Source: Deltaproteobacteria bacterium (GTDB lineage Bacteria; Desulfobacterota; Desulfobacteria; Desulfobacterales; QNYZ01). From it: a stretch of DNA of 64,000 bases. Position 1 is the stretch's first letter; each line of letters begins with the position of its first letter. The translations under genes and the position numbers were made by a program. The notes under the pieces are model-generated. The model was not told where the DNA came from, did not search any database, and saw only the letters and a program-made list of their open reading frames with translations. Location of the stretch: assembly GCA_003973265.1 (NCBI GenBank), contig QNYZ01000094.1, positions 1,804-65,803 of the forward strand, given 5' to 3'. This document shows positions 1 to 33,876 of this stretch, one piece after another.

Positions 1-421
1 TGGCTACATTCATATACGCGTATTTCAGGGCCGTCATGCCGGAGATGCAGATACCGTGGGTCGACACCGCCTCGCAGGCCGGAATGCCCAGTTCGCCCAG
101 CACCATCAGGGCATGACCCGGAAAGAGCAGGTCGGGAGAAGTTGTGGCGCAGCACAATGTCTCGATGGCGGAGAGTTCAAACCCGGGACAGGGGGTCAGC
201 CGGCGGATGGCCTCAGCGGCCAGTCCGGCATTGGAATGGGTCAACCGCCCGGTAGCCGGGTCAATGGCGTAGTGGCGCTGTTTGATTCCGTTGTTTTTCA
301 GGACGATCCGCTTGGTGCGCGACGGCAGATCGTTGACTTTTCCCAGGATATCTTCGACTTGATCATTTTCAATCGGTTCGTGGGGCAGATAGGCAGCCAC
401 GTCGGTGATATATGCGTTCAT
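1..421 (-). CDS. darB: KAS III (FabH)-like condensing enzyme, DarB-like; N-terminal part only, the gene runs off the window start
   Basis: Not in the ORF track because no stop lies inside the window. My minus-strand translation from the ATG at 421-419 reads MNAYITDVAAYLPHEPIENDQVEDILGKVNDLPSRTKRIVLKNNGIKQRHYAIDPATGRLTHSNAGLAAEAIRRL...STHGICISGMTALKYAYMNVA. This has FabH/KAS-III-like N-terminal layout with a candidate nucleophile Cys in GICISG. The start overlaps the stop of the upstream darA-like gene (ATGA at 418-421). Confidence 0.7.
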   Translation of the reverse strand, partial: MNAYITDVAAYLPHEPIENDQVEDILGKVNDLPSRTKRIVLKNNGIKQRHYAIDPATGRLTHSNAGLAAEAIRRLTPCPGFELSAIETLCCATTSPDLLFPGHALMVLGELGIPACEAVSTHGICISGMTALKYAYMNVA

Positions 422-1362
422 GGTTCCTTTAAGTGGTTGGTTTGAAAATAGTCGGTCAGCGTGTTGATCTTGTCTTTTTTCAATAATCGAATCAGGGCAG
501 TGACACCCGTGGCCAGAGGCGCCAGGATGAAAATGGCGGTCAGCAGGTATCCGATAAAAAGGCGCAATCTTGGCTTGCGGGCCGGGTCTCCCCGCTCTCC
601 CCGGCGGCGGATAAAGGCCGACCAGACGGCGAAGATCTTTTTAATCCGGCTCTCAAAGAGGATAAAGGCCGGTACTACCGGCGTTGCGCCGAGGCGGTTC
701 AGCGCCTGTTGAAGGGCGGTCCAGCGGTCGTTGAGAAGGGCACCTCTGATCGCCGGGGAAAAACGTCGTGCGGCGACGATGTCACCTTCGGTAATGCCCG
801 GATTGGGAAGAATGCCGAGAAAGCGCTTCTTTTTTCCGGTGAGCATCCAGGCGGCGATGGTGATCACCCCGACGAGGTTGGGGGCGCTGTCGGTGAGGAC
901 GATGTTGCCCACCAGCAGGCCGCCGTTAGCCGCAATGCGGCGCTTGACCTTTTCCTGGGCCTGGAGCCACATGTTGCGGCAGCCGATGAGGGTGATTACC
1001 GGCCGGCCGCGCATGACCCGGGCCGCTTCGGGTGATTGCAGAAAGGAAGTAACCGGAATCGACGGCGCCAGGTACCAGACCTGGTAAGCCAGGACAATCA
1101 GGTCGTAGTCGGCATCCGGGTCAAAGGAAACCGGCGCCAGTCGGCACGGCACTTCTTCCAGAGATTCGGGGAAGACGTCGACAAATTCAAGGGCCGTCCA
1201 GGGGAAGGGAAACGGCTCGATCGGCCGCAGCGTTTCGGTGACAACGGAAATCCGCCCGTTTTCGGTTTCATTGACGAGCGGATCGACCAGGGCCGAAACA
1301 ATATCGGCCAGTTGCCCGGATTGAGAAAAGGATACAACCAGAATTTTTTTGATATTTTTCAC
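418..1362 (-). CDS. darA: DarA-like protein (dialkylresorcinol-condensing-enzyme family, flavodoxin-like N-terminus, C-terminal membrane helix)
   Basis: 314-aa ORF. N-terminus MKNIKKILVVSFSQSGQLADIV is flavodoxin-like and matches my recollection of DarA proteins. It sits directly upstream of, and is translationally coupled to, a KAS III-like gene, as in darAB pairs. Confidence 0.6.
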   Translation of the reverse strand: MKNIKKILVVSFSQSGQLADIVSALVDPLVNETENGRISVVTETLRPIEPFPFPWTALEFVDVFPESLEEVPCRLAPVSFDPDADYDLIVLAYQVWYLAPSIPVTSFLQSPEAARVMRGRPVITLIGCRNMWLQAQEKVKRRIAANGGLLVGNIVLTDSAPNLVGVITIAAWMLTGKKKRFLGILPNPGITEGDIVAARRFSPAIRGALLNDRWTALQQALNRLGATPVVPAFILFESRIKKIFAVWSAFIRRRGERGDPARKPRLRLFIGYLLTAIFILAPLATGVTALIRLLKKDKINTLTDYFQTNHLKEP

Positions 1363-1387
1363 GGCTGCGAGGCGCCTTTCTGATTTG

Positions 1388-4300
1388 TCAGGCGGCGCTG
1401 GAACCGCTTTTCAGCCTGTACCAGTCACCGGCGGCCCCGGGTTTGAACGCCTGATAGAGCGCCGGGTCCATGGTGGCTTCGTACCCGAGCAGCCGGGCCA
1501 CGACCGCCTGGTCCGGGCCGACAAAGGTAAAATCTCCAGTCATTTTTCGGGAGGTGACATCTCGGATTTCGAGCACGGCGACCAGTCCGGATTTCGGAAA
1601 TTGCCGGGTATACTGACGATACGAAGCCGTATAGCTGGGCAGGGATACCATGCCCTGTTGTTCGTAGCACCAGACCGAGGCCATTTGGAAGGCCGTATCC
1701 AGGGCCAGGGGATCGGCCAGCCACGTGCTTCTAAGTGGTTCAGTCATCCATTGGTCGGGCCGGGGCGCAGAGCAGATGTCGGCCACCATGCCATTTTCGG
1801 TCAGACCCTGGATCTTTTTGAGGCCACGCAGGTGCTCGCCGTGAAATAAAATGGTTTCGTAAACATCTTCAATGCTGCGGGGGTAGGGCCGGACAGTCAG
1901 TTCCGCGGGAATGGTAAAGTCCGGCGCCGGGTGCAGGTTTTCAGCGAGAATGGCCCGGCCGCGGCAATGGACCACTTCAATACCTTCTTTAACGCCGTCA
2001 TGCAGTTCGACCGGTATTTCAAAGTGGTTGTCCAGGCGGCTGGCTTTGCCGGCCATCAACCGGATTGTTTTGGCACCGTTGTCCAGGCGAATCCCTTTCA
2101 GTATCCGCATATCGTCGATTCCCTGCAGCAGCAGACCGGGATTTTCATGCAGGGCGCCGTGGGCGAACCACTCGGTCATCAATGCAAAGGGGATGACGGG
2201 ATGACCGTCCAGCATGTGGGATTTAAGAACGGGATAACGATGAACGTCGATTTCCCGCCTGAAGGAAAGACTCAGATTCCGGGCCGCGGTGGTCTCAATT
2301 TGCGATGAAGTGTCCATCCGGACGTTCGCCATGGGCGCCGAGATTTCATTGCCGATGGTGACTTCCACGGGGCTTTCCGGCCCGGCGCCCATCTCCCGAA
2401 CCAGGCAGTCGGCACCGGTCTGGGCAGGAATCAGGCTGATGCCGCGCCGGGCAAATAATCGTTTTAAAGCGGGTGAAACCATGCCGCCTTCCCAGGGGCC
2501 CCAGTTGATGGATGAAACATTACAATGGGGGCGCTGGATCGCTTCGGCCTGGGCGATCTTGTTGACGGCTTCATTGGCCATGGCATAATCGGATTGGCCC
2601 GGGTTGCCAAAGCGGGCGCTGACCGAAGAAAACAGGACGATGTTTTTCAATTCATCGTTCCGGGTGGCGGCAAGGAGGTTGAGCAGGCCGCCGGCCTTGG
2701 TAGCGAAGACCTGGTTAAACTCCTGGACGGTTTTATCAAGAATAAAGCTGTCGCGAAGAAGACCGGCGCCATGAATCAGGGCCGTAATCGGGCCCAGATC
2801 CGTTCGGATCTGCCCGATTACCCGGCTTACCCCTTTGGCATCAGTGACATCCACCGGATAGTACCGCGCGGTGATACCAAGGTCGGCCAGTGCTTTCAGG
2901 TGGTGGTAAATCTCACTGTTGGCCATATGGCGCCGGAAAGCCTGTTCCAGTTCGATAGGGGAGGGCGGGGGTGTCTCTGATCCGGGCGCAAATTCGTTGG
3001 CCAGGATGGCTTTTTTTGCCCCTGCGGCATCCGTGGTATCAGGCAGCCATTCCGGTGGCTCTACCGGCTGCGGAGATCGCCCCAGCAGGGCAAATCTTGC
3101 ACCGGTATCGCGGGCCAGCGCCTCAACTGCTGTGGCGGTGATGCCGCGCGCGCCGCCGCTGACCACGACGACATCCCCGGCGGACAGATCTGAGCGGGCA
3201 TTTGAAATATCGGCTGTTTGAAGGGAAAGAATATAATGTTCGTTTTTCGCAAGGTCCGGATGAAGGCCGATTTCCAGGGGCGGCCGGGGCTCGGTTTCGG
3301 TAAGTGCGGTCAAAATGGCCCCGGCGATGGCACAATGATCGTCCCAGCCGGGCGCAGCATCAATGGCCTGGCAGCGAATATCGGGCCATTCCGCGGCGGC
3401 GGTTTTAACCAGACCGGCCAGGGCGCCCTGGATCGGGTGGGGGACACCGGTGCCCAAAAAACCAAAGGCCCCGTCCATGCGGGTGACGGTGCAGAAAAGC
3501 CGGGGCGATTTCGATCCGGTTTTCTGCATCCGTTTTCCGGCAGACCGGGCCAGTAAGAAAACGTTGCGGATCATTTCCACGTCAATGGGCGTGTTGGCCG
3601 GTAAGACGGGGATCAGGCCGCCAATGGGCCCGTCTACCTGTTCCAGGGCCGCAGCGTCGGTCGCAATCACCCGGGCCGGCATGCCCTGCCCGGAAAAGGC
3701 ATCGGCCAGCGCGGTGGATAAACCGGTTCCGTCTTCAGTGATATAGATGGGGTCTTGATTACCTGAATTCGTCCGGCATTGCCCTGAGAATCTGCGGGTT
3801 TTTACCTCGATAACCCGGCGCCGGACCGTGCTGTCCCCCGTATCTTTTTCCGGGGGCCGGGCGTCTGTTTCCGGCGCCGGAAAGGGGGCGTCCTTAGCGG
3901 TTTCACCTGCCGTCAAGTACCTGACAATCTGGCCCAGGGTTTTCAGATCGCCCATATCCTCGGGGGCCACGGACGGCAGTTCCGGCATTTTTTCTTCCAT
4001 GGCGGAAAGGATCTCCACCCGTTTGATGGAGTCGATTCCCAGGTCGGATTCAATGTCCATGTCCAGGTTGAGCATGTCCGCCGGGTATCCGGTCAGTTCG
4101 CTGATGACGTCCATCAGGGTGGATGTAACGGTTCCTGAATCTGCTTCCGGGGACGTTGCGGCTGTATCTGACGGTTGCGCCAGGGGAGATATGGGTTCTG
4201 GCGTGGCAGGAGGATCCACGCAGAGGTGGCCGACAATCTGGCCCAGGGTTTTCAGATCGCCCATATCCTCGGGGGCCACGGACGGCAGTTCCGGCATTTT

Positions 4301-7300
4301 TTCTTCCATGGCGGAAAGGATCTCCACCCGTTTGATGGAATCGATTCCCAGGTCGGATTCAATGTCCATGTCCAGGTTGAGCATGTCCGCCGGGTATCCG
4401 GTTAATTCACTGATCACGTTGAAAAGCGTTTTTGCCACCGCATTGGTATTGGACGATTCACCGGCAGCGGCGTCGGTTTCCGGCAGCGTGGGGGCTAAAG
4501 CCTGCGATGGTGCGGCCGGCTCAACCGGGGGATCCACGGGCACTGACAATGGTAAGGGATCGACCGTTGGGGGCGGTGCAGGCGTCTGTTTCGGGTCGGC
4601 TGCCGGATGATGGACCGCATGATCCACCCTGTTGCGGGTATTCGATGTTGCTTCAATGATGCCGGATGTATGCGCCATGTCCCGGGTTTGGGACATCAAT
4701 GACTGCAGCACCTGGCTGGCGTCGGCCTGGGTTTTCAGAAAAAGTTCATGGGCACTGGCCGTCCGGGCCTGGAGCTCCCGCATCGATTTTAATCCCTCGC
4801 GGATAATCATGGCCGTGTCTGTGAGGCTGTTATCGGCCGGGTTACGGTCGGGCCGGGAGGCATTAACATTGACTGCAGGTGTCGGTGTGATTGGTTTGTC
4901 GCTCATTTCCTGTTCCGTAGGGTCTTGGGGTAAAGGGGTTCCGGCCGGAGCAGACATGGCATCTGACCGTGTCTCTGCCGGTGCCGTCGTCGCTGCTGCG
5001 CCCTGGGATAAATCGCTTCGGGGATTTTTATAATTGGCGCCGCTAATGGGAAACCGCATCAGGGGCGTGCGCTGTTTTCCCGACGGCGGTGGGGATTCCC
5101 ACCGGTCCAGGTCGACCGGGTATCCCAATGCGGCCAGGTGGCAGAGACATCTGGCCAGATCGATCAAACCGAATTTTTTTCCGCTGGATGCATCGACGGC
5201 CAGGGCGGTGAAATCCTGTTTTCTTAAAATCTGCCGGATGAGTCCGGTGAGAACCGTTTTGGGCCCCACCTCGACGAAGGTCCGGATGCCGGTGTCATAT
5301 AAATTCTCTATGTTTGAGACGAAATCGACCGGGTTGATGATCTGGCGGCCCAGAATATCCCGGGCCGTGTCGGCGTCTTCGGGATACGCCGTACCGGTGG
5401 TGTTGGAAAAAACCGGCACCTCCGTCGGTGTCAGGTCGATATCGGACAGCAGCCGGCGAAAGGGTTTCTGGGCCGATGCCACCAGCGGGCTGTGAAACGC
5501 GGCAGCCACCGGCAGAGGGATGGCCCTGAATTTGAGTTCCCTGCATTTTTTTTGAGCGGCTTTGATGGCCGCCGTGCTCCCGGACAGCACGCCCTGGCGG
5601 GGACTGTTGCGGTTGGCCAGAATGACATCGGAATCAAGGGCGGCCACCATGGTATCCAGATCGGCCAGGGCCGCTTTTACGGCCATCATGGTACCGGGAT
5701 CACCGTCGGTGGTGGCACCGGCTTCGGCCATCAGGCGACCCCGGGCAATGGATACCCGGCAAAAGGTCTCGGTATCCATCCAGCCGCCTGCCAGCAGGGC
5801 AACCAGTTCGCCGTAGCTGTGGCCGCACGTGGCCGACGGCACGATGCCGAAGCCGGAAAGGATGCGGTATAAGGCCAGGCTCATCGCGCCGATGGCCGGC
5901 TGGGCGACATCCGTGGGCCGCAGGTGATCTTCTTGGGCTTTCCGGCTTTTTTTATCGTTTACCGGGCAGGGGAAAATGAAATCACTCAAGCGTCCGTTTT
6001 CAAAAACGCGGTTAAACGATTCAAACGCATCCAGCGCTTCGGGAAAAATACACGACAGGTCGCGTCCCATTCCCACGTATTGGCTCCCCTGTCCCGGAAA
6101 AACAAAGGCCAGCTTTCCAGGAGGGTTGCCAATGCCGAGAAAGACGTCGCCGGCGGTTTGAAAGAACGGGTCGGAATCCGTTTCGGCCAATGTCGTGCGA
6201 ATGTCGGACAGGTTGGCTTTTAATCTGGATGGGTCCGGTTCAGACCGATCGACCATGAACAGGAGGCGGTATCGGGCCGACGATTCGAAATCTGTGCGGC
6301 TGTCGGCGGCATCGATGGCCAGTTGCCCGCTATCAGGACCCGGCTCAATTTTTTTGATCCAGTCCGCAATAATTCCGGACAGCGCGTCTGCCGTATCGGC
6401 CGACAGGGTAACGATTTCGACGCTGCCATCCCAGGCCGTTTCCTGTTTCTCGGACTGAAATTCTTCGAGAACCAGATGGAAATTGCTGCCGCCGAATCCA
6501 AAGGCGGACACGCCTCCCCGGCGGGGATGGCCGGGCCGGGAAAGCCAGGGCCGCGTGGTCGTGTTCAGGTAAAACGGGCTCTCTTCAATATGCAGATCGG
6601 GATCGGGGTTGTCGGCCTTAAGGGTCGGTGGAAGGGTTTTATGGTGCAGGGCCAGGGCGGTCTTGATCAGGCCCGCTGTTCCGGCAGCAGCCTTGGTATG
6701 ACCGATCATCGATTTGACGGCACCGAGAGCGCATCGGTTTTGCCGATGATTTTTCCCGTCCCCGGCCCGGGGAAACACCTCGGACAATGTGTCAAATTCC
6801 GTTTGATCGCCCACCCGTGTTCCCGTGCCATGGGCCTCTACCAGGTCCACACTGGCCGGGTCCACACCCGCCAGGTCGTAGGCCATGCGCATCGCCTTGA
6901 CCTGCCCGTCTTTGCGGGGGGCATAGATACTCTGGGAACGGCCGTCACTGGAGGTGCCCACGCCCCGGATAACGGCATAAATCCGATTCTTGTCCCGCCG
7001 GGCGTCTTCCAGCCGTTTCAGGACAACGATCCCGACCCCTTCGCCCAGCACGGTGCCGTCCGCCTCGGCGGAAAACGGCCGGATGTCTCCGGTGGGTGAG
7101 AGAATACGGGTTTTGGCAAAACACATATGCATGAAGATATCGTTGAGCGTATCCACGCCGCCGGTCAGCACCATGTCGGCCCGCCCGGTGGTCAGTTCCA
7201 GCACGGAAAGGTGAATGGCACTCATGGAACTGGCGCAGGCCGCGTCCACCACGCAATTGGTGCCGCCCAGGTCGAGGCGGTTGGAAATCCGGCCGGCCAC

Positions 7301-7876
7301 AACATTACCCAGCAGGCCGGGGAAGGAATTCTCCTGCCAGGATACATACGAAGCGGAGATTCGCTGAACGACCTCATCGACCTTGTCGTCTTCAATGCCC
7401 GACGCCTTCAATGCCCGTCGCCACTTGGGATGATCGAGGCGGGCCCCCAGTGGGATAACCAGCTCCTGGGTGCCGGTAACGCCGAGAATAACACTGGTCC
7501 GCTCCCGGTTAAACGGCTGCCCGTTTTCTCCGTATCCGGCATCTTCAAGTGCCGTTTTGGCGGCAACCAGTCCAAGCAATTGAGACGTGTCCGTTGCCTC
7601 CAGCGTGTTGGGCGGAATTCCGTATTCGGTGGGGTCAAAATCAACGGGAGAGAGGAATCCACCCCTCGTACAATAGATTTTGTCTTCGGCCGCGGGATCG
7701 GCGTCAAAGTAGTCCTTGATCGACCAGTGGGAGTCAGGCACATCGGTGATGGCATCCATCCCGTGGTAGAGCAGGCGCCAGTAGGATTTTAAACCGGGGG
7801 CTTTTGGAAAAAAGCAGCCGATGCCGATAATCGCGACAGGCGTATTAGGAAGCTGATCGGTGGTGCGTGTCTGCAT
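1388..7876 (-). CDS. PfaA-like iterative type I FAS/PKS megasynthase, KS-AT-ACP-ACP-KR-DH
   Basis: 2162-aa ORF. KS motifs VDAACASS, EAHGTGTRVGD, GHTKAAAG. AT motif GHSYGE. Two tandem ACPs, each with LGIDSIKRVEILS. KR Rossmann motif VVVSGGARGITA. C-terminal PKS-type dehydratase with HMLDGHPVIP (HxxxGxxxxP). Confidence 0.93.
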   Translation of the reverse strand: MQTRTTDQLPNTPVAIIGIGCFFPKAPGLKSYWRLLYHGMDAITDVPDSHWSIKDYFDADPAAEDKIYCTRGGFLSPVDFDPTEYGIPPNTLEATDTSQLLGLVAAKTALEDAGYGENGQPFNRERTSVILGVTGTQELVIPLGARLDHPKWRRALKASGIEDDKVDEVVQRISASYVSWQENSFPGLLGNVVAGRISNRLDLGGTNCVVDAACASSMSAIHLSVLELTTGRADMVLTGGVDTLNDIFMHMCFAKTRILSPTGDIRPFSAEADGTVLGEGVGIVVLKRLEDARRDKNRIYAVIRGVGTSSDGRSQSIYAPRKDGQVKAMRMAYDLAGVDPASVDLVEAHGTGTRVGDQTEFDTLSEVFPRAGDGKNHRQNRCALGAVKSMIGHTKAAAGTAGLIKTALALHHKTLPPTLKADNPDPDLHIEESPFYLNTTTRPWLSRPGHPRRGGVSAFGFGGSNFHLVLEEFQSEKQETAWDGSVEIVTLSADTADALSGIIADWIKKIEPGPDSGQLAIDAADSRTDFESSARYRLLFMVDRSEPDPSRLKANLSDIRTTLAETDSDPFFQTAGDVFLGIGNPPGKLAFVFPGQGSQYVGMGRDLSCIFPEALDAFESFNRVFENGRLSDFIFPCPVNDKKSRKAQEDHLRPTDVAQPAIGAMSLALYRILSGFGIVPSATCGHSYGELVALLAGGWMDTETFCRVSIARGRLMAEAGATTDGDPGTMMAVKAALADLDTMVAALDSDVILANRNSPRQGVLSGSTAAIKAAQKKCRELKFRAIPLPVAAAFHSPLVASAQKPFRRLLSDIDLTPTEVPVFSNTTGTAYPEDADTARDILGRQIINPVDFVSNIENLYDTGIRTFVEVGPKTVLTGLIRQILRKQDFTALAVDASSGKKFGLIDLARCLCHLAALGYPVDLDRWESPPPSGKQRTPLMRFPISGANYKNPRSDLSQGAAATTAPAETRSDAMSAPAGTPLPQDPTEQEMSDKPITPTPAVNVNASRPDRNPADNSLTDTAMIIREGLKSMRELQARTASAHELFLKTQADASQVLQSLMSQTRDMAHTSGIIEATSNTRNRVDHAVHHPAADPKQTPAPPPTVDPLPLSVPVDPPVEPAAPSQALAPTLPETDAAAGESSNTNAVAKTLFNVISELTGYPADMLNLDMDIESDLGIDSIKRVEILSAMEEKMPELPSVAPEDMGDLKTLGQIVGHLCVDPPATPEPISPLAQPSDTAATSPEADSGTVTSTLMDVISELTGYPADMLNLDMDIESDLGIDSIKRVEILSAMEEKMPELPSVAPEDMGDLKTLGQIVRYLTAGETAKDAPFPAPETDARPPEKDTGDSTVRRRVIEVKTRRFSGQCRTNSGNQDPIYITEDGTGLSTALADAFSGQGMPARVIATDAAALEQVDGPIGGLIPVLPANTPIDVEMIRNVFLLARSAGKRMQKTGSKSPRLFCTVTRMDGAFGFLGTGVPHPIQGALAGLVKTAAAEWPDIRCQAIDAAPGWDDHCAIAGAILTALTETEPRPPLEIGLHPDLAKNEHYILSLQTADISNARSDLSAGDVVVVSGGARGITATAVEALARDTGARFALLGRSPQPVEPPEWLPDTTDAAGAKKAILANEFAPGSETPPPSPIELEQAFRRHMANSEIYHHLKALADLGITARYYPVDVTDAKGVSRVIGQIRTDLGPITALIHGAGLLRDSFILDKTVQEFNQVFATKAGGLLNLLAATRNDELKNIVLFSSVSARFGNPGQSDYAMANEAVNKIAQAEAIQRPHCNVSSINWGPWEGGMVSPALKRLFARRGISLIPAQTGADCLVREMGAGPESPVEVTIGNEISAPMANVRMDTSSQIETTAARNLSLSFRREIDVHRYPVLKSHMLDGHPVIPFALMTEWFAHGALHENPGLLLQGIDDMRILKGIRLDNGAKTIRLMAGKASRLDNHFEIPVELHDGVKEGIEVVHCRGRAILAENLHPAPDFTIPAELTVRPYPRSIEDVYETILFHGEHLRGLKKIQGLTENGMVADICSAPRPDQWMTEPLRSTWLADPLALDTAFQMASVWCYEQQGMVSLPSYTASYRQYTRQFPKSGLVAVLEIRDVTSRKMTGDFTFVGPDQAVVARLLGYEATMDPALYQAFKPGAAGDWYRLKSGSSAA
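3923..4402. repeat. Tandem direct repeat with a 309-bp period, encoding the two ACP domains of the megasynthase
   Basis: 3923-4093 and 4232-4402 align base for base. I see one mismatch (g at 4031 versus a at 4340). Identity decays over the next roughly 15 nt. Confidence 0.9.
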
Positions 7877-7889
7877 AGGAACGATGCCG

Positions 7890-9641
7890 TTATTCTTTCA
7901 TTAATTGTTGAATTCGGTCCAGGGGCAAGGGCTTGAAATGCCCGGCTTCGGTTGGCAGCGGAATACCCTGGCTGCGAAGTTGCTGACAGCGGTGAATCAC
8001 CGCCGCCCCGAATATAAAATTGTGTGCCACGGTGACAATGTCACGCTGGCCGGTGTCGGCTAAGAACGATCCCCGGGTCCATTCGTTGAATGCGCCCATG
8101 GCCGGCCCGCACCAGATCTGGTAATCGAGCCGGCGGTCGGTTACGCCGGTATTGGCCCAGGTGGATGCCTGGCCCAGGTAGGAACGAAATACCAGGGCCA
8201 TCCGGTGCCGGGGGCTCTTCTGGGCCCGTTGAAGCTGGCCGGGGTCGCGCCGGGCAAAAAATTCACGGGTTAACTGCCATTCGTCGTCGAACGATTTTTT
8301 TAAAAGGTCGGTTTCAATCCAGCGGCGGTCTTCATCGGGGATGTCGCCATAGGTCTCGTAACGGGTATACAGATCGTAAAGTTTGCGTGCCCGCAAGGGG
8401 AACAGGGTGCCCCGCTTCAACACCTGGACCTTGACGCCCAGTTCAAACATGTCGGCGGCCGGCGCCATGACGACATCGGCCTGACGGGTATCGGCCAGCA
8501 TCTTTCGAACCGCTTCGGATGTACCGGATTCGATACAGGCCTGGTTTACAGACCCGGTCAGCACAAATGCCGCTCCCATGGCAAAAGCGGCTGCGGTGGA
8601 AGCCGGGGTGCCGATACCCCCGCCAAGCCCCACACCGGGCGGTCGCGGGTAAGCGTGGTTTCGGCTGATCTCGTCCCGGATCGCCATTATCGTCGGCAGT
8701 AGAGAAAGCGCCGGGCGATTATCCGTATGGCCGCCCGAGTCGGCTTCGGCGGTCAGGTCATCGGCCATGGGGATGCGTCTGGCCAGGTTTGCTTCGTGGT
8801 CGGATATCCGCTTTTGCTGCAGCAGCCTGGTGATGATCTTCTCCGGGGGCGGGCTCAGAAATTTTCGGGCCACCTCTTCCCGGGAGACTTTAGCAATCAC
8901 GTGATTGGGAACCATGATCCGGCCGTCGGCGCCCTGGTGGATACCCTTGATACGATAATATGCCACGGGCAGGGTTACATCCATAAATGCCGACGCGCTG
9001 ATCAACCGAACCTGTCGCTCAAGGTAAAGCTCAACCGTTTTCATCTCAAGGGACGGATCCGCCGGGGAATGGATCAGGTTAAAGCCGAAGGGGAACGGGC
9101 GTCGATCGTGAGATTTTTGCAGGTGGCCAATGGCGTCATCGATTCCGGACAGGGACAGCCCGCCGGCGCCGAAAAAAGCCAGCAATCCGGCCCGCCCGGC
9201 CGCTTCAACCATGGATACAGAGGTGATACCGTTGGCCATGGCACCAACGACATACGCATAACGGATGCCGTGAAAATGACAAAATTCCCGATCACCCAGG
9301 TTCCCGGGTGGAAGCGGAGCTGTATAACCCAGCACCGGGGCTCCCCGTTTTTCTTCGGGAACATTACCCCCAATGATCAGGCTGCCACTCTTGCTGAGTC
9401 CGATGCCGTTATTTTTCCGGATTAAAATAACAGGCTCGTTCAGCCGCAGCAATGCCGCCCTGATGCCTGCCGGATCCGTGTCGAGCGTTGCCCCGTCCCG
9501 AACCTGTCGGATCGGATCCGTATGGTCGTTCAGGCACCACCCGATGGGCGAATATGTGAGGGATGTTGTTTGAGCCATATCGCGGTCTTTTATGAAAACA
9601 GAGCCAAGTGGAAAGGAGTCATTGCTACTGCCACTTGGCAT
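7890..9641 (-). CDS. pfaD: PfaD-family trans-acting enoyl reductase (FMN/nitronate-monooxygenase fold)
   Basis: 583-aa ORF with LTAEADSGGHTDNRP and GGIGTP motifs typical of PfaD/FabK-like enoyl reductases. It lies immediately upstream of the PfaA-like gene with a 13-nt gap. The true start may be the internal Met at 9578. Confidence 0.85.
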   Translation of the reverse strand: MPSGSSNDSFPLGSVFIKDRDMAQTTSLTYSPIGWCLNDHTDPIRQVRDGATLDTDPAGIRAALLRLNEPVILIRKNNGIGLSKSGSLIIGGNVPEEKRGAPVLGYTAPLPPGNLGDREFCHFHGIRYAYVVGAMANGITSVSMVEAAGRAGLLAFFGAGGLSLSGIDDAIGHLQKSHDRRPFPFGFNLIHSPADPSLEMKTVELYLERQVRLISASAFMDVTLPVAYYRIKGIHQGADGRIMVPNHVIAKVSREEVARKFLSPPPEKIITRLLQQKRISDHEANLARRIPMADDLTAEADSGGHTDNRPALSLLPTIMAIRDEISRNHAYPRPPGVGLGGGIGTPASTAAAFAMGAAFVLTGSVNQACIESGTSEAVRKMLADTRQADVVMAPAADMFELGVKVQVLKRGTLFPLRARKLYDLYTRYETYGDIPDEDRRWIETDLLKKSFDDEWQLTREFFARRDPGQLQRAQKSPRHRMALVFRSYLGQASTWANTGVTDRRLDYQIWCGPAMGAFNEWTRGSFLADTGQRDIVTVAHNFIFGAAVIHRCQQLRSQGIPLPTEAGHFKPLPLDRIQQLMKE

Positions 9642-10025
9642 ATTTTGTACGCTAAATTCCTAATACTATATTGGATCAACGGAATATGTCAAGGTTTCAC
9701 CGTAATTCTCGGGCAAATTTAAGGGGTAGTGGTCAAAAAAGTAGAAACAAGATCGGTTTTTCCCCGATGCGGTAGTATAAAAATGACGCAAAAATATTTT
9801 TATATAGTGATGTAATATTATAAAACATAATAAATACAAAAAGATAAATTATGACGCAATATTGATGACGCGACATGAAATAATTACATCTGGAAGTGAT
9901 ATTTGGATAAAAAACGATATTTTATAGAAACTTCGGGCCTCCCTTGACGCCGGCACGCGGAATCACCATATTTATTAAATGACATAAGCGTTGGCTGGCT
10001 GAATCGTTCACCCTTTAAGGAGAAA

Positions 10026-10700
10026 GTGGAGATAATGGAAATTACCAGGAAAATACACGGCTTTATGTGGGAATCTTTCAGGGAGAATAATTGCAATACC
10101 TTCCTGATTGATGGATCTGTCCGGATATTAATCGATCCCGGGCATCTGCACCTTTTCGATCATGTTGAAAAGGGTCTGACATCCATGGGGCTTGAAATGG
10201 ACGATATCGGCATGGCTGTCTGTACCCATGGCCACCCGGATCATCTCGAGGGGATGGCGCTTTTCAAAGATCTCCCGGCCCGGACGGCCATGGGCGAAAC
10301 CGAGTGGCAGTTCTGCCGGGAAATGGCGCCCCGGCTCCACTCTTCACTGGGAATGACCCTCGACGGCCTGGCCCCGGATATTCTGCTGACCGAAGGCGAT
10401 CTGACCATCGGCGATGTGCATTTCAAGGTTTATCACACTCCCGGACACTCGCCCGGATCGATCTGCCTCTACTGGCCGGATGAAAAAGTGCTGATTACCG
10501 GAGATCTTATCTTTAAGGACGGGCTGGGCCGGACCGACCTGCCGGGTGGAAACGGCACCCAGATCAAGGAAAGCATTAAACGCATGGCTTCGCTGGATGT
10601 GGAATGGGTGCTGCCCGGCCATGGCGATATCATCCGCGGCGGTGATGCGGTAAAAGCCAATTTTGATCTGCTGGAACGACAATGGTTTGCTTATGTTTGA
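10026..10700 (+). CDS. MBL-fold metallo-hydrolase
   Basis: 224-aa ORF with the HxHxDH motif (CTHGHPDHLEG) and downstream HTPGHSPGS and PGHG motifs. Confidence 0.85.
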   Translation: MEIMEITRKIHGFMWESFRENNCNTFLIDGSVRILIDPGHLHLFDHVEKGLTSMGLEMDDIGMAVCTHGHPDHLEGMALFKDLPARTAMGETEWQFCREMAPRLHSSLGMTLDGLAPDILLTEGDLTIGDVHFKVYHTPGHSPGSICLYWPDEKVLITGDLIFKDGLGRTDLPGGNGTQIKESIKRMASLDVEWVLPGHGDIIRGGDAVKANFDLLERQWFAYV

Positions 10701-10756
10701 TCTTTTGCGGATGACCTTAATCGCGGGGCATGAGCGCGGATTGATTGAGGGGGCTT

Positions 10757-11296
10757 TTATGAATCCTGAGCGTGAGCGACGCGTTTCTTTCCGGCAGTCA
10801 GCTGAATCCGGAATTGATCGATGAGGGTATTTTGTTCTGACTGCCATTGGGGGTCGATCTCAATATTGAAAATGACCGCTGACCCGGAGATACCGTCGTT
10901 TGATAAATCTGTTTTTAAAGCGTCGATTCGCCGCCGCCGCCCCTGGTTGCGGGCTGTTTCAAATTCGGCCAGAATCGTTTCAAGCATGGATGTATCCAGG
11001 CCGAAATAGTCAGACAGAACCGACAGACAGGCGTTATTGTCGATATTTACCTCGATTCGGCGCAACAGCTCATCGACAATCCGCCCGGAAGTACCATGGC
11101 CGTATTCTGTTTTCAATTCATCCAGTTGGCGGGTCAACTCGGTCTGTTTGATGGCCTGGTCCTGGTATTTCTGTATTAATCCGGCCAGATTATTTTTTAA
11201 TTCCTTCTCGCGCTGGTCCTTTTTTTCTTCTGCATTCAAAGTCATGTTTTTCGTACGCGCCATGACAAGGTCCAGGGTACTTTTTATTTCAGCCAT
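10757..11296 (-). CDS. Hypothetical protein, charged and coiled-coil-rich
   Basis: 179-aa ORF with coding-like composition. It lies downstream of, and co-oriented with, the methyltransferase gene. I recognise no motif. Confidence 0.5.
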   Translation of the reverse strand: MAEIKSTLDLVMARTKNMTLNAEEKKDQREKELKNNLAGLIQKYQDQAIKQTELTRQLDELKTEYGHGTSGRIVDELLRRIEVNIDNNACLSVLSDYFGLDTSMLETILAEFETARNQGRRRRIDALKTDLSNDGISGSAVIFNIEIDPQWQSEQNTLIDQFRIQLTAGKKRVAHAQDS

Positions 11297-11373
11297 GTTT
11301 TCTCATCTTTCGTTGTCTCATGTGTGCGCGGGATTGTCATCGCAGCGGGTGCGGCAAGCCGCCTCGGTTGTCG

Positions 11374-12528
11374 TCAATCTGTCGTAAAAAGGGATTTCTG
11401 GCGCGGACCGGCCGAATCATGCCCGGGAGCGTTCGGTTCCTGATGGTCGATTGCCATGCTGTAGGTGATTTGTAAGATGTTCTCGTCAATTTTCCGGGCC
11501 TTGACGGGGCGGTCCAGGCGCAGGGATTTTTCCTGCGCCGTCATGACCGGAAAGTTGTAATGGGTATTCATGTGCTTGAAATGGTATCCTTTGTCCTGGC
11601 GTTCCTCGACAAAGGCCCGGTGATCTTTCAGCCGCTGGTCGATGCGCGCATTGGCCGCCATGCGGACGGCCGCCGGGTCGGCAAAGACCGTTGGCTTAAA
11701 ATGCCGGTCCATTTCAATGCCGATACTGTTTCGGCAGGCTGCCATGGCCGCCCATGACGTGGTGCCGGTCCCGAGAAACGGGTCAAGGACGGTATCTCCC
11801 TTGGCTGAATACATGTTGATCAGTCGATAGGGGATTTCAAAGGGAAAGGCGGCACTGCGTTTGCGAAGCGCCGGGTCTGTCAGGGCCTGCCGGCTGCCCT
11901 TGATATCAAACCAGACATCGGAAAACCAGGTATTGCGTTCTTCCCAGAAGTAGGCGCTTTCCCTTCGGCCCTGTTTTTCGGCCGGTTGAGTAAATTCACG
12001 CTTGCCGCCTTTTCGGGCGATAAGGATATATTCGTGCTCAAGGGTGACATACGCACCGGCCGGGAGCATCCCCGAGCCCATGAATTTATTGGGGGCATTG
12101 GTCTGCTTGCGCCAGAGGATATCGGGCAGGGGCGTAAATCCCAGTCGGGTTAATGCCGATAAAATGCGGGCATGGTTCGGATACAGTGCAAAATGATCCC
12201 CGATGGTCCGGGTGGCGTCACCGATGTTGATACATGCGAACCGGCCGGGTTTTAAGATGCGCCATACCTCTTTCCATACGTTGTCGAGCAGGAGGTGCAT
12301 GGCTTCAAACGCCGCCATTCCGTTGTTTTTTTTCAATGCCTTATGAATATTGCGGTTCTGTTTTCCGAAAATATCATCCCACATTGCGATCATGGGGTAG
12401 GGGGGCGATGTGACGATCAGGTCGATGCTGTTCGAATCCACCGCAGTCATGCGGGAGGCATCGGCCCAGACGACGCGATGTTTTGTTGCCGCAACGGGGG
12501 CGCAAGGGTTGTTTTTTATGTCAGACAT
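11374..12528 (-). CDS. Site-specific DNA methyltransferase, beta-class (N4-C or N6-A), no cognate nuclease nearby
   Basis: 384-aa ORF. Catalytic motif IV, IVTSPPYPM, is near the N-terminus and the AdoMet motif VLDPFLGTGTT lies in the C-terminal half; this order defines the beta class. It overlaps the cca stop by 13 nt. Confidence 0.85.
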   Translation of the reverse strand: MSDIKNNPCAPVAATKHRVVWADASRMTAVDSNSIDLIVTSPPYPMIAMWDDIFGKQNRNIHKALKKNNGMAAFEAMHLLLDNVWKEVWRILKPGRFACINIGDATRTIGDHFALYPNHARILSALTRLGFTPLPDILWRKQTNAPNKFMGSGMLPAGAYVTLEHEYILIARKGGKREFTQPAEKQGRRESAYFWEERNTWFSDVWFDIKGSRQALTDPALRKRSAAFPFEIPYRLINMYSAKGDTVLDPFLGTGTTSWAAMAACRNSIGIEMDRHFKPTVFADPAAVRMAANARIDQRLKDHRAFVEERQDKGYHFKHMNTHYNFPVMTAQEKSLRLDRPVKARKIDENILQITYSMAIDHQEPNAPGHDSAGPRQKSLFTTD

Positions 12529-15628: not shown

Positions 15629-16084
15629 TTATCGACGATTTTTGAAAAAATCCTGAATCAAAGTCCGGCATTCATCCCTGCAAACCCCTGCCGTTACGGT
15701 GACAACATGATTAAAGCGGGAATCGGCGCTAAAATTATACAAAGATCCGGCCGCTCCCCATCTGGGATCCGGCGCCCCGTAAACGAGACGGTTGATCCGC
15801 GCATGAATAATCGCTCCCATGCACATCACACAGGGCTCAATGGTAACATATAAGGTGGTGTTCAACAACCGGTAGTTCAGCCGTCTGTGGCCGCCTTCCC
15901 GTAACACCCGGATTTCAGCATGCGCCGTAGGGTCATGGGTGGTGACAACCGCGTTGTGAGCCGTTGAAAGAACCTCCCCGGAGTCGCTGACAAGAATTGC
16001 ACCGACCGGCACTTCACCACCATCCGCGGCTTTTTTGGCTTCATCAATGGCCATGGCCATCAATTTGTCGTCAATTGACCCCAT
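15629..16084 (-). CDS. tadA: tRNA adenosine(34) deaminase
   Basis: 151-aa ORF with the CDA-fold zinc motifs HAE (TAHAEIRVL) and PCVMC. Confidence 0.92.
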   Translation of the reverse strand: MGSIDDKLMAMAIDEAKKAADGGEVPVGAILVSDSGEVLSTAHNAVVTTHDPTAHAEIRVLREGGHRRLNYRLLNTTLYVTIEPCVMCMGAIIHARINRLVYGAPDPRWGAAGSLYNFSADSRFNHVVTVTAGVCRDECRTLIQDFFKNRR

Positions 16085-16254
16085 TGATGAATTATATACC
16101 CCTGACTATTTTGCGGATCAAGAAATAAAATACCTGGCGGGTAAATCGTATTGGAAATATTTGACTGTACGGCCGATTGGATATGAAAAAGAAAAAGGAT
16201 TCTTGACAACCTTTCCGGAAATGTTTAAATACTGCGTCACGATATCTTTCATGT

Positions 16255-16332
16255 GCGCCCGTAGCTCAGCCTGGATAGAGCGCCGGACTACGAATCCGTA
16301 GGTCGCAAGTTCGAATCTTGCCGGGCGCACCA
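16255..16332 (+). tRNA. tRNA-Arg (anticodon ACG)
   Basis: Cloverleaf: GCGCCCG TA GCTC AGCCTGGATA GAGC G CCGGA CTACGAA TCCGT AGGTC GCAAG TTCGAAT CTTGC CGGGCGC A CCA. Confidence 0.92.
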
Positions 16333-16679
16333 ATTCATAAAAACCCTGTCAAGTTTTTTTACTTTTTTCGCTGAATCGTTGCCTTGGACGAAAAAATCCG
16401 GTCTGTATAAACTGTATAAAAAGGTGTATTGTCGGTATGTCGTCGGTTTTGTTGCTGATAACAAGGCCCCTCTCATCGATATTACCAGATCTCGCGGATG
16501 GGCCATGCGGTAATTTTATCATTTTTTGGCCCTGCACCGGTGAAGGGACTATAATTAAACAGGTGTCAGAAAAACAACGCTGAAACGCTTGAAAAGACGT
16601 ATACCTGCGCCGCACGATATCATAGTGTCACCTCAAGATACCTGCATGCAGGCATCCGAACCCGTTTCCTGGGAAATAC

Positions 16680-17271
16680 TCATTTGACCGTCACTGAAAA
16701 AGGTCCATAGCTGCGGGTTGTCCCTGCGGCCTCCTGTTCAATCAGTCGATATTGATAGGTTCCACTCGTAGCCCCGGGATCTGCCAGCTGGTATTCACCA
16801 CCCATGGGCGCATTAATCAGGCCCGGCAGCATATCGTTGTTAATCCGGGTCCATGTCATGTCGCTGTTTCTGCGCTCTACGTAGAAACCTACTGTCCCAC
16901 GTTCTTCCAGCGTATCCCAGTGAAGAACGACCACCCTGCTGTCCTGGTCTGGGTCCAGATACTGCTGCAGGGCCTGGATTATTTCATTGTGGCCAGTTGA
17001 TGAAAGGGATGCTGCTGCAACAGGATCCCATGTTTGCAACATCTTCAAAAGATGCTGATCTCCTTCTTTACCGTTATATGAGCAGAAATCTTCGGCCGCG
17101 CCTCTGGTTACGCAGGCGATCATCCTTTTCCCGGCGCATGACGCTTCGATACATCTTTCCGTACATAAAAACGCGATCCATCCAGCCGTTGAGGATAGCC
17201 GGCATACCAAGCCACCAGATTGGAAAATGAACCACTAACAAATCGCTGTCCAGCAGGCGTTGCGTTTCCAC
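16680..17271 (-). pseudogene. Frameshifted remnant of a flavodoxin-like NAD(P)H quinone oxidoreductase, running into an unrelated beta-sandwich-like tail
   Basis: ORF 17074-17271 encodes only DLLVVHFPIWWLGMPAILNGWMDRVFMYGKMY, a Flavodoxin_2/NQO-type core, with no N-terminal Rossmann part. In another frame, ORF 16680-17210 continues with GKRMIACVTRGAAEDFCSYNGKEGD, which resembles the next segment of that family. It ends in a roughly 90-aa unrelated domain. Confidence 0.5.
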
Positions 17272-17324
17272 TGCTACTTCTGGTCTAAATCCCGGATTCA
17301 GGAATTTGCGGTAACGGTTGTATT

Positions 17325-17945
17325 TTATGCATCTTCCTTGTATTTCACATTATCACAGATCATGTTAACAGCCTGGTCGATGGAATTGTTTCCTGTATCA
17401 ATAACCAGATTATAAAGGTGGACATTGTTCCAGTCTTCTTTAAAATAATGTTTAATGTACTGCATTAACTCGGCTTCTTCTTTTTTGATATACTCTCTGG
17501 CTGATGCTTCATCCATATTTTGTTTTTTCATCACTGCGGCAATCTTTTTTTCTTCTGACTGGATAAATCGAACATGGAGCGTATCGGGTTTATCTTTTAA
17601 TATACACTGGGCGCCCCATCCAAGGATGATGGCATTGCCTTCTTTATATACATCTTCAACAAGTTTTTTAGTTACACTGTAATACTTATCATCGTCAAAG
17701 CAGCCGTATTCATGGTCGACGACTTTCTGAACAATACTGCATGTATATTTATCTACATACCGCATTAACCTGGAGCTGGATGCCTGAGTATACATTTTTG
17801 CATCAGATTTTGATATGTTAAGTTCCTTGGCTATTTGTGCTAAAAGCTTTTTACCAATATATTCATACCCTAATTTTTCCGCGGCTTTTGAGGCGATTTT
17901 TTCGCTGTCTGTTCCCACCCCTTTGCTGATCGTGATAATTGCCAT
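17325..17945 (-). CDS. Cytidylate-kinase-like family protein (AAA/NMP-kinase-like fold)
   Basis: 206-aa ORF. The N-terminus MAIITISKGVGTDSEKIA is a degenerate P-loop typical of the cytidylate kinase-like family. Codon usage is AT-rich relative to neighbouring genes. Confidence 0.6.
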   Translation of the reverse strand: MAIITISKGVGTDSEKIASKAAEKLGYEYIGKKLLAQIAKELNISKSDAKMYTQASSSRLMRYVDKYTCSIVQKVVDHEYGCFDDDKYYSVTKKLVEDVYKEGNAIILGWGAQCILKDKPDTLHVRFIQSEEKKIAAVMKKQNMDEASAREYIKKEEAELMQYIKHYFKEDWNNVHLYNLVIDTGNNSIDQAVNMICDNVKYKEDA

Positions 17946-18265
17946 GTTGAAAGTCCCCCCTGATTAGGATTTAACGGCTTTTTTAAGAAAACGAAAAACA
18001 TAGCCGAGATGAAAGATTATTATTCTGTAAAAGAGAGATTGAGAAAATCATAAGATACTAAAAAATAATGAATCCAACCTGGTTTGTCAAATAATCTAAC
18101 TTTTTAAAGCACTGAAGTTTCGAAATCATAACCAGAAAACATTTAAAAGACCCGCTCAAAATTTGAATTATTTTCTGCGGCGCTACCAACATCCCCCTGT
18201 GAAGGCCCCGGCTTCCCGGGTTGCTGTAATTGACAATTAACCAGATTTCTGATTTTAAATATACC

Positions 18266-19627
18266 ATGAATCCAAATACTGATGAAAAAGATACTTCCAC
18301 TCCTGTTACATCTCCGGGAGTTTTAAAAGCCGTTAAATATACTCAACCGGTTAAAAAATTTATCGCAAAAATTGTTTCCGGAAGTTTTCCCCTGTTTTTT
18401 GCAGCTATTTTGGCCATTGCCTGGGCCAATATCAGCCGCCATACCTACCATGATGTATGGTATACCCATATCTCAATAAGCCTGGGGAAATTTTCTATTT
18501 CAAAACCGCTTGCCCACTGGATTGACGAAGCGCTGATGGCTCTCTTTTTCTTTACTGTGGGCCTTGAAATTAAAAGAGAAGTTATCGTAGGTGAACTGGC
18601 ATCCTTTAAAAAAGCACTTTTGCCGGTAACAGCTGCCGCAGGAGGGATGCTGATACCGGCACTCATTTACGTGGCGATTAATCTGAACTCGGATTCCTTG
18701 TCTGGATGGGGGATCCCCATGGCAACCGACATCGCTTTCTCCCTGGCGGTTTTATCGATCCTGGGAAAGCGGATTCCTTTTGGTATCTATGTTTTTCTTT
18801 CAGCTTTTGCCATTGCGGATGATCTGGGCGCTGTTCTGGTGATTGCCCTTTTTTATACCAAAGCGATCGCATGGAAATATCTTTTGTTAAGCCTGCTTTT
18901 TCTGTTCCTCATGGCAATCTGTAACCTGTTATGGATTCGAGTAACTTTGGTATATGCCGTACTGGGAATCGGTCTCTGGTTTGCCATTCTCGGATCTGGT
19001 ATTCATGCGACTGTGGCCGGTGTATTAACGGCCATGTTTATTCCTGCCAGGGGAAAGTATGATACGCAAACGTTTATAAATAAGGTTCAGCGGTATATCC
19101 ACGAATTTAATTGCCAGGGGGAGTATGAATGCGGATATACGATTTTGCTGAACAAAAACCACCAGAACGCGGTTCACCATATTGACATGGCCTGTGAGGA
19201 AGTAAAAACCCCCTTGCAGAAGCTGGAATGGAATCTCAATCCATGGGTTGCTTATCTTATTCTCCCTTTGTTCGCTTTGGCCAATTCGGGTATTGTTTTT
19301 CGTGATCTCAATTTTGGTGAATCCCTTTCCCATCCAGTTACTTTAGGGGTTCTTCTGGGTTTGATTGTGGGAAAGCCTGTGGGGATCTCTCTGTTTACTT
19401 TTCTATCCGTCAAACTGCTGAAAACAGAACTCTATACAGGGATCACCTGGCAGCACATTCTGGGCGCCAGCATGCTCGGCGGAATCGGGTTTACCATGTC
19501 GATATTTATTACAGGGTTGTCCTTTGAAAACGCTGCCTATACTGAGCTTTCAAAGCTGGGAATTATTTTTGCTTCACTTGTTTCCGGCGGTGTCGGATTT
19601 TTTATCCTTCGCAGCGCAAGTAAATGA
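18266..19627 (+). CDS. nhaA: Na+/H+ antiporter NhaA
   Basis: The ORF track gives 18230-19627 with a TTG start; I prefer the ATG at 18266. NhaA hallmarks are FFFTVGLEIKRE, IPMATDIAF and AIADDLGAV (the paired Asp motif), with a multi-pass membrane profile. Confidence 0.9.
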   Translation: MNPNTDEKDTSTPVTSPGVLKAVKYTQPVKKFIAKIVSGSFPLFFAAILAIAWANISRHTYHDVWYTHISISLGKFSISKPLAHWIDEALMALFFFTVGLEIKREVIVGELASFKKALLPVTAAAGGMLIPALIYVAINLNSDSLSGWGIPMATDIAFSLAVLSILGKRIPFGIYVFLSAFAIADDLGAVLVIALFYTKAIAWKYLLLSLLFLFLMAICNLLWIRVTLVYAVLGIGLWFAILGSGIHATVAGVLTAMFIPARGKYDTQTFINKVQRYIHEFNCQGEYECGYTILLNKNHQNAVHHIDMACEEVKTPLQKLEWNLNPWVAYLILPLFALANSGIVFRDLNFGESLSHPVTLGVLLGLIVGKPVGISLFTFLSVKLLKTELYTGITWQHILGASMLGGIGFTMSIFITGLSFENAAYTELSKLGIIFASLVSGGVGFFILRSASK

Positions 19628-19643
19628 TCCGGACACGTTTGAG

Positions 19644-31231: not shown

Positions 31232-31232
31232 G

Positions 31233-33831: not shown

Positions 33832-33876
33832 CGGATGTCATTTCACGGCGTCAGGACAGCCGCGGGTCCCTCTGTT

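Follow-up and report, generated by a model that had tools for sequence, protein, structure and literature searches.

Why should an operon for a fatty-acid-type megasynthase end in the genes for a resorcinol-forming pair of enzymes? The question is raised by one end of a 64-kb stretch of DNA, called the window below, from an uncultured Desulfobacterales-type (sulfate-reducer-type) bacterium. Here four co-directional genes on the minus strand encode PfaD and a PfaA-like protein, relatives of the polyunsaturated fatty acid (PUFA) synthases, followed by DarA and DarB, relatives of the enzymes that make dialkylresorcinols. The reading that we favor, with a probability of about one half, is that pfaDA feeds the DarAB pair and that DarB intercepts intermediates bound to the PfaA-like synthase; we infer the source of the substrates, the class of the product and its chain lengths from sequence comparison. 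A secondary-lipid synthase joined to the ring-forming enzymes DarAB is a new combination of parts that each belong to a known family. It did not turn up in literature searches for DarA or DarB together with PfaD, for dialkylresorcinol together with "PUFA synthase", or for resorcinol or hglE-KS in Desulfobacter-type organisms.

The list of open reading frames and their translations gives the following layout, in the order of transcription.

9665-9692, minus strand: candidate sigma-70-like promoter upstream of pfaD (TTGACA-16-TATAGT, 11/12 matches; a consensus match only)
7890-9641, minus strand: pfaD, 583 aa, ATG start
1388-7876, minus strand: pfaA-like gene, 2162 aa, ATG start
418-1362, minus strand: darA, 314 aa, GTG start
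1-421, minus strand: darB, partial, its first 140 codons, the rest lying beyond the window edge

The genes are closely packed. Only 13 nt separate pfaD from pfaA (7877-7889) and 25 nt separate pfaA from darA (1363-1387), and the darA stop and darB start overlap by 4 nt in an ATGA (418-421). An AT-rich intergenic region of 385 bp lies 5′ of pfaD, with a divergent gene for a metallo-β-lactamase (MBL)-fold protein beyond it. A near-consensus promoter was found upstream of pfaD only, and a search of the pfaA 3′ end gave no promoter-like site for darA. Twelve terminator-like matches fall on the minus strand, none at a gene junction and all within coding sequence or upstream of pfaD; the total of 20 such matches is not clearly in excess of the number in shuffled sequence (13.0 ± 3.9). 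The GC content of the four genes is uniform, at 0.57-0.61. Because the genes are joined by short gaps or an overlap, the lone candidate promoter lies 5′ of pfaD, the junctions are free of terminators and the GC content is even, it is very likely that the four genes are co-transcribed. The true start of pfaD is possibly Met22 (nt 9578) instead of the codon at 9641, since the PfaD proteins of relatives are 541-571 aa long.

The family assignments of the first two genes are clear-cut. PfaD scores 596.4 bits against TIGR02814 (cut-off 449.25) and contains the PfaD_N and FabD_helical_ins domains; by this family match it is predicted to be a trans-acting, FMN-type enoyl reductase (ER). The 2162-aa synthase scores 1514.6 bits against TIGR02813, the PfaA model (cut-off 1010). 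Pfam resolves it into KS, KS_C, AT, two PP-binding domains, KR and PS-DH, which places ketosynthase (KS), malonyl-type acyltransferase (MAT), two acyl carrier proteins (ACPs), ketoreductase (KR) and dehydratase (DH) in the order KS-MAT-ACP-ACP-KR-DH. Inspection of the motifs found the catalytic residues of all these domains intact.

6362-7843, minus strand: KS with its C-terminal extension (aa 12-505); Cys214 (DAACASS), His349 (HGTGT) and His393 (GHTK)
5189-6115, minus strand: malonyl-type acyltransferase (aa 588-896); GHSYG with Ser687, AAFHS; 186.6 bits with the fabD model
3914-4429, minus strand: tandem ACPs; motif LGIDSIKRVEIL in each, with Ser1180 and Ser1283
2489-3169, minus strand: KR (aa 1570-1796); NADPH-binding GGARGI, Tyr1764
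1469-2254, minus strand: DH of the polyketide synthase (PKS) type (aa 1875-2136); H1887xxxGxxxxP and D2060xxxQ

The segments that encode the two ACPs (3923-4110 and 4232-4419) form a direct repeat of 188 nt with 97% identity, 309 nt apart. The encoded cores of about 60 aa are identical, which suggests that the ACPs were duplicated not long ago or were homogenized by gene conversion. Tandem Repeats Finder missed this duplication, and a general repeat search recovered it.

The remainder of darB, cut by the window edge, was recovered from contig L001 (ENA), which was reached through P0001, a DarA that is 99% identical to that of the window. By tblastn, the PfaD, PfaA and DarB encoded on L001 are 100% identical to the window proteins and its DarA 99%, and the contig reaches 1.8 kb beyond the window start. 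When the window DarA, begun with either V or M, and P0121, a 100%-identical PfaA, were looked up by exact sequence, no recorded contig was returned. On L001 darB is the last gene of the operon; the next gene, which is convergent, encodes an ABC-2 permease and is truncated by the contig end. L089, probably a companion contig of L087 and L090 from a related lineage, begins inside darA and likewise has no gene after darB.

DarB can be placed with some precision. The fragment in the window, which includes the catalytic Cys125 (GICISG), matches NF005293, the model of the StlD/DarB family, with 193 bits over 136 of the 378 profile positions. The whole 380-aa protein on L001 scores 529.9 bits with this model, above the cut-off of 450, and at most 90 bits with FabH models. 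It also matches StlD of known structure (PDB 5GK0) with E = 4e-118 in phmmer, and in the alignment of the two proteins GICISG and GACAAG, and the PHYSS and KGNTGSA motifs, line up across the Cys-His-Asn set. With NF053539, a narrow, exception-level model named "resorcinol_DarB", DarB reaches 438.9 bits against a cut-off of 550. Judged by these scores, it is a member of the StlD/DarB family and not a close orthologue of the characterized DarB that underlies NF053539.

The assignment of DarA is of a different kind. No Pfam or NCBIfam model matches the protein, even at E = 10, and its identity is based on the names of its homologues, on synteny with darB and on structure prediction. Homologues number more than 2,850, several of them named "dialkylresorcinol condensing enzyme DarA" at NCBI; identities are 50-62% to proteins of Desulfobacterales and 40-48% to proteins of Bacteroidota. 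For comparison of gene neighborhoods we drew on 80 genome hits, the best among 589, together with 19 metagenome loci. In nearly all of the 80 genome loci, which come from Desulfobacterota, Bacteroidota and other groups, the darA homologue adjoins a darB homologue. Profile searches detect weak flavodoxin-like sequence similarity. In the AlphaFold model (mean predicted local distance difference test score, pLDDT, 89.5; predicted template modeling score, pTM, 0.90) an N-terminal flavodoxin fold, which among PDB entries is matched best by WrbA-type FMN quinone oxidoreductases, is followed by a helical, probably membrane-associated C-terminal region. DarA is thus a putative carboxy-cyclohexanedione aromatase, with a predicted fold that fits flavin-dependent, O2-independent dehydrogenation.

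These results sustain much of a preliminary description of the locus, which had been drawn up from the letters of the window and its reading frames. The gene order and the junctions that it gave (13 nt, 25 nt and ATGA) agree with the translations; its pfaD-like and PfaA-like proteins exceed the cut-offs of TIGR02814 and TIGR02813; and the complete reductive set that it claimed is present, as KS, MAT, two ACPs, KR and DH with a trans-acting ER. What it had called a protein resembling β-ketoacyl-ACP synthase (KAS) III groups with StlD/DarB and not with ordinary FabH (530 versus 90 bits, and the match to 5GK0), and its darA-like protein belongs to the family named DarA at NCBI, which is syntenic with darB across phyla. 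Extension of the contig, which it had proposed, has supplied the whole of darB and the end of the operon.

DarB-type enzymes join a β-ketoacyl thioester and an α,β-unsaturated acyl thioester to form a carboxy-cyclohexanedione, which DarA-type proteins aromatize with decarboxylation. The substrates of DarAB are defined intermediates of the fatty acid cycle, and the favored reading can be written out as a sequence of steps. The PfaA-like protein and PfaD would constitute a self-sufficient iterative type I synthase, elongating chains on its own two ACPs. Pfa synthases cannot introduce cis double bonds without a dehydratase/isomerase of the FabA type; saturated chains would be expected here because PfaA-like and PfaD include neither such an isomerase nor a chain-length factor (CLF). 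In each cycle the synthase would carry a 3-oxoacyl-ACP and a trans-2-enoyl-ACP, the two substrate classes of DarB. DarB would take both intermediates from the ACPs of PfaA and, by head-to-head Michael addition and Claisen cyclization, generate the carboxy-cyclohexanedione. It might thereby double as the step of chain release, since the synthase has neither a thioesterase nor an off-loading partner of the PfaB type. DarA, with its flavodoxin fold and probable association with the membrane, would then aromatize and decarboxylate the ring to yield a 2,5-dialkylresorcinol, with a flavin taking the place of O2. The product could be exported by the convergent ABC-2 transporter, and a type II cluster at about 30-45 kb in the window may process it further.

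A bolder version of this scheme is put forward tentatively. In it the tandem ACPs of PfaA would be a dedicated scaffold that offers DarB both a 3-oxoacyl and a 2-enoyl chain from one and the same synthase, DarB would be the release step, and the products would be very-long-chain dialkylresorcinol or cyclohexanedione lipids of the envelope or membrane, made without oxygen by anaerobes of the sulfate-reducer type. If this were true, it would afford the first chemical handle on the product of the ubiquitous pfaD-pfaA module of Desulfobacterales. Coupling of the two systems in any form would mean that DarAB chemistry reaches substrates tethered to a megasynthase, and would predict resorcinolic lipids, possible biomarkers, in anoxic sediments.

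Such a hand-over has a parallel. In the ars operon of Azotobacter the type I fatty acid synthase (FAS) ArsA supplies C23-C25 acyl chains to resorcinol-forming type III PKSs (PMC4824345), so that dedicated acyl supply to resorcinol formation is not without precedent. As in the operon described here, Azotobacter vinelandii ArsABCD combines a dedicated type I synthase and resorcinol-forming condensing enzymes in one operon, and its long acyl chain goes into a phenolic lipid, not into phospholipids. The type III PKSs of Ars, however, extend one acyl starter with malonyl-CoA to monoalkylresorcinols and pyrones, whereas the KAS III-like DarB would join two fatty-acid-derived chains. ArsA, moreover, differs in type from PfaA/PfaD, and a phosphopantetheinyl transferase (PPTase) is encoded within the ars operon itself. 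No chalcone-synthase-type (type III PKS) protein was found in the window; the operon does not belong to the Ars family, though it may function in a similar way.

The resemblance to PUFA synthases calls for consideration of a remnant or partial PUFA synthase, one that makes lipids like eicosapentaenoic or docosahexaenoic acid, or precursors of olefins, and to which darAB would be irrelevant. The models do name PfaA and PfaD, and the ACPs carry LGIDSIKRVEIL. When every other non-overlapping open reading frame of 90 aa or more in the window was scanned against Pfam, however, no ACPS/PPTase, no second Acyl_transf_1 domain and no PfaC-like KS-CLF-DH2 protein was detected, and a PPTase taken as tblastn query from the dar locus L029 had no match in the window, although one may be encoded elsewhere in the genome. 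PfaB, PfaC (KS-CLF with a FabA-type DH2) and PfaE are also missing within 8 kb of pfaA in the related loci L084-L087, L107 and L108. The absence of PfaB, PfaC and PfaE from the window, asserted in the preliminary description, is therefore confirmed by the Pfam scan and the PPTase search. Canonical PUFA synthesis is rejected, being effectively excluded by these missing components. Even a partial system is most improbable, for the cis double bonds of such lipids are impossible without a FabA-type dehydratase/isomerase (see the list of Pfa domains in PMC3098273).

The distribution of the junction between the two systems is of interest. The pfaA-darA(-darB) fusion occurs in four related lineages: the window with L001; L082; L083; and L087, which equals L090 over the region compared and is accompanied by L089. 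Among them DarA identities are 78-84% and those of the PfaA C-terminal region 70-79%; no spacer is much longer than 40 nt, and the overlap of darA and darB is retained. The fusion is limited to one sub-clade and tightly conserved there. An assembly chimera is ruled out by the presence of the same junction in the independent assemblies L001, L082, L083 and L087/L090. A recent horizontal insertion of darAB was also considered; it finds no support in the uniform GC content of the operon or in the nearest relatives of DarA and DarB, which are other Desulfobacterales proteins.

Outside this sub-clade the two halves live apart. Thousands of full-length relatives of the PfaA-like protein, with about 50% identity, are found in Desulfobacterales. 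In L086, L107 and L108 (Desulfosarcina alkanivorans complete genome, AP021874) pfaD lies upstream of pfaA with no other pfa gene near. The neighbors of such stand-alone pairs are housekeeping genes, with no thioesterase or PPTase nearby, and the PfaA-like proteins have about 2,150-2,250 aa. L084/L085, with a PfaA 67% identical to that of the window, shows the same synteny as the window, tadA-purA-cca-DNA methylase-MBL-pfaD-pfaA, followed by the gene for elongation factor G instead of darAB. Judging from these loci, pfaD-pfaA is an ancient stand-alone module of two genes without obvious adaptation to DarAB; it evidently has a function of its own, since throughout Desulfobacterales pfaDA is found by itself with unchanged architecture and length. 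From the same comparison, darAB is the later part: it was added to a pfaDA operon that already existed, and brought with it the neighboring ABC-2 exporter.

Two-gene clusters of pfaD and pfaA were catalogued in 2011 as Type J, "secondary lipid synthase" (Shulse & Allen, PMC3098273), and the stand-alone pair is among the commonest orphan genes of this class in Desulfobacterales. With the Pfa and Type J systems the window shares tandem ACPs carrying LGIDSIKRVEIL, a pfaD directly upstream, and the two-gene combination of ER and KS-MAT-ACPn-KR(-DH). It differs from the PUFA synthases in the absence of PfaB, PfaC and PfaE and in having two ACPs only. In contrast to other Pfa systems, the Desulfobacterales pair is widespread, vertically conserved and stand-alone, and is joined to darAB in this sub-clade only. 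The compact pfaDA-darAB system could show which chain the orphan module makes and how that chain is released.

The surroundings of darAB in other genomes are equally distinctive. The usual dar locus of Desulfobacterota contains darA-darB, a convergent ABC-2 permease with its ATPase, a KS, a KS/CLF-like protein, an ACP and a BtrH_N/DUF4872 protein. Typical examples are L009 (12212-18003) and L029 (9761-14529), the latter with an AMP-ligase and an Sfp-type PPTase in addition. This conserved layout is apparently new to the literature. Queries for the AMP-ligase and the BtrH_N/DUF4872 protein of related dar loci gave no tblastn match in the window. PfaD, or the AT, KR or DH of PfaA, was found within 10 kb of darAB in none of the best 80 of the 589 genome loci, and among the 19 metagenome loci pfa genes lie by darAB in one, L090, which is of the L087 lineage; separate fusions may exist among the remaining genome hits.

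It is thus a real possibility that pfaDA and DarAB are independent of one another: pfaDA would be an order-wide FAS, secondary or perhaps core, that supplies membrane lipids; DarAB would be fed by FAS II, by β-oxidation or by the type II cluster of the window, as is presumably the case in other Desulfobacterota; and the fusion would be tolerated or would serve co-regulation at most. The locus would then be a mere rearrangement that joins two known systems. Several observations point this way and weigh against the reading that we favor. The synthase occurs without darAB in L084/85, L086, L107 and L108 with identical architecture and length, and L084/85 retains the same upstream synteny with EF-G (elongation factor G) after pfaA. 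Outside the fusion clade darAB adjoins not pfa genes but type II KS, CLF-like protein and ACP, radical-SAM proteins and an ABC exporter; homologues of these usual partners are present in the window, where the ABC-2 permease still stands next to darB. A Desulfobacterium pfa-like cluster has been proposed as a possible core FAS (Shulse & Allen, PMC3098273). The shortfall of DarB against NF053539 and the absence of a visible PPTase from the window also weigh against the favored reading. What speaks for a functional link is the conserved structure of the operon and the plausibility of the chemistry; in other genomes each half does without the other. Independence of the two systems, on the other hand, sits less easily with a junction whose very short spacers have been kept across lineages 21-30% apart in the PfaA C-terminal region, with a darA that has no promoter-like site of its own in the pfaA 3′ end, and with DarB substrates that are the very intermediates of this synthase.

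One claim of the preliminary description does not survive the comparison. It had supposed that the megasynthase replaces DarC, the small ACP of known dar systems. The pfaDA pair existed as a module of its own before darAB was joined to it, and darAB elsewhere lies by a type II cluster; since pfaDA stands alone elsewhere and the usual partners of darAB, including two ACPs, are in the window, the megasynthase is not a replacement for DarC. The only free-standing small ACPs of the window lie at 36061-36324 and 40307-40573, and none was found between pfaD and the ABC-2 permease in the window and L001.

The likeness to DarABC, StlCD and BrtCD (Pseudomonas, Chitinophaga, Photorhabdus, and the bartolosides of Synechocystis) consists in the adjacent darA and darB and in a DarB of the StlD/DarB family. 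The same chemistry would be expected here, from β-ketoacyl and 2-enoyl thioesters by way of a carboxy-cyclohexanedione to a resorcinol. The differences are that the operon has no DarC-type ACP, that darAB is appended to a PfaD/PfaA megasynthase, that the operon belongs to an anaerobe of the Desulfobacterales type, and that DarB remains below the NF053539 cut-off. DarC is missing from the brt and microcarbonin clusters as well, and is hence not strictly defining (PMC6836626). Orphan darAB clusters of cyanobacteria (Nostocales/Stigonematales) include type I PKSs (PMC6836626), and thus resemble the window in combining DarA and DarB with type I PKS genes and lipid exporters. Those clusters, however, exceed 25 kb and contain modular PKSs, CylC/CylK and DevBCA, whereas the operon here is a compact set of four genes built around a single iterative synthase of the PfaA type with its trans-acting ER.

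The partners that darAB has elsewhere reappear, at a distance, in the window itself.

20516-26008 and 29901-44614, mostly minus strand: second lipid/polyketide-type cluster, not part of the operon and probably a partner of it

The first of these segments encodes an MMPL/HpnN-like transporter, a Dak2-DegV protein and 4HBT thioesterases. The second encodes a PS-DH-like protein, a YbgC-type thioesterase, two FabF-like KSs, two radical-SAM/SPASM-like proteins, the two small ACPs already mentioned, a FabA-like protein, a B12-radical-SAM protein, a fusion of KS and CLF-like domains, a hot-dog DH, a FabG-like KR, a LolA-like protein and a further B12-binding radical-SAM protein. The first B12-radical-SAM protein scores 386 bits with TIGR04072 (cut-off 360), a ladderane-type model named "lipid biosynthesis B12-binding/radical SAM protein". 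Homologues of these genes are found next to darAB in several Desulfobacterota. In L029 a block that leads into darAB has the gene order of the window: radical SAM (66% identity), radical SAM (80%), KS (65%), KS (70%), thioesterase (58%) and PS-DH (37%), with counterparts at 30.7-36 kb, or at 29.9-30.8 kb for PS-DH. A KS-KS-thioesterase block lies by darAB in L019 and L015 (Desulfobacter). A homologue (73%) of the B12-binding radical-SAM protein adjoins darA in L016, where KR and LolA-like genes also occur, and the dar loci L017, L021 and L027 carry Dak2-DegV and 4HBT homologues.

On this evidence one may ask whether DarAB, instead of a free long-chain dialkylresorcinol, produces a phenolic or cyclohexanedione head group for some larger hybrid lipid or pigment akin to flexirubins, arcuflavin or stilbenes, with the type II cluster supplying a DarB substrate or an esterified partner and PfaDA at most one alkyl chain. 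The L029 block, the pairing of darA elsewhere with homologues of the B12-radical-SAM, KR, LolA and DegV/thioesterase proteins of the window, and the ACPs, KS-CLF-like fusion, DH, KR, LolA-like and MMPL-like proteins of the cluster all speak for such a role. Bacteroidota darAB are reported to lie within flexirubin-type clusters (PMC3992019, PMC3949708), and StlD forms a stilbene from an aryl-polyenoyl substrate (PMC6836626). We nevertheless consider a hybrid product unlikely. In this genome 19 kb or more, with the housekeeping genes purA, tadA, cca and nhaA, lie between the cluster and darAB; neither an aromatic ammonia-lyase nor an AMP-ligase was detected in the window; and the radical-SAM cluster is one without a known product.

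Comparison with flexirubin and aryl-polyene systems, and with the "ladderane-like" lipid cassette of TIGR04072, shows that darAB of other Desulfobacterota lie in or by a type II cluster of KS, ACP, DH, KR, LolA and transporter genes, as they do in flexirubin clusters; the set is also present in the window. The differences are the distance of about 19 kb or more between darAB and the cluster, the lack of visible enzymes for an aromatic starter in the window, and the radical-SAM genes, which have no counterpart in flexirubin biosynthesis.

Two reading frames in and by this cluster appear to be misassigned in the automatic list. The frame at 40941-41978 (minus strand), 345 aa, is rich in His and Gly, has no family match and is probably spurious. 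It overlaps a plus-strand frame of 245 aa (41208-41945), which by its sequence looks like a FabG-type short-chain dehydrogenase/reductase (TGASGGIGRAI, YSAAK), homologues of which lie near darAB in 38 related loci. The frame at 29351-30250 likewise masks the PS-DH-like gene (29901-30773).

Several other regions of the window deserve brief mention. Upstream of the operon, 10026-12528 holds the MBL-fold hydrolase gene divergent from pfaD, then a 179-aa frame without family match and then an N6/N4 DNA methyltransferase gene. L084/85 has kept both the MBL and the methylase neighbor on the 5′ side of pfaD; L087 has kept only the methylase. At 54312-59564 are menaquinone genes of the futalosine pathway, encoding two VitK2_biosynth/MqnA-like proteins, an amidohydrolase and two CofH/MqnC-type radical-SAM proteins; L086, a relative, carries these mqn genes immediately 3′ of pfaA. 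Finally, the GC content falls to 0.44-0.45 at 16001-20000, compared with about 0.55 in the rest of the window. This segment, which may be foreign DNA or an island, contains a 176-aa frame without matches, a cytidylate-kinase-like gene (17325-17945) and the gene for NhaA (18230-19627).

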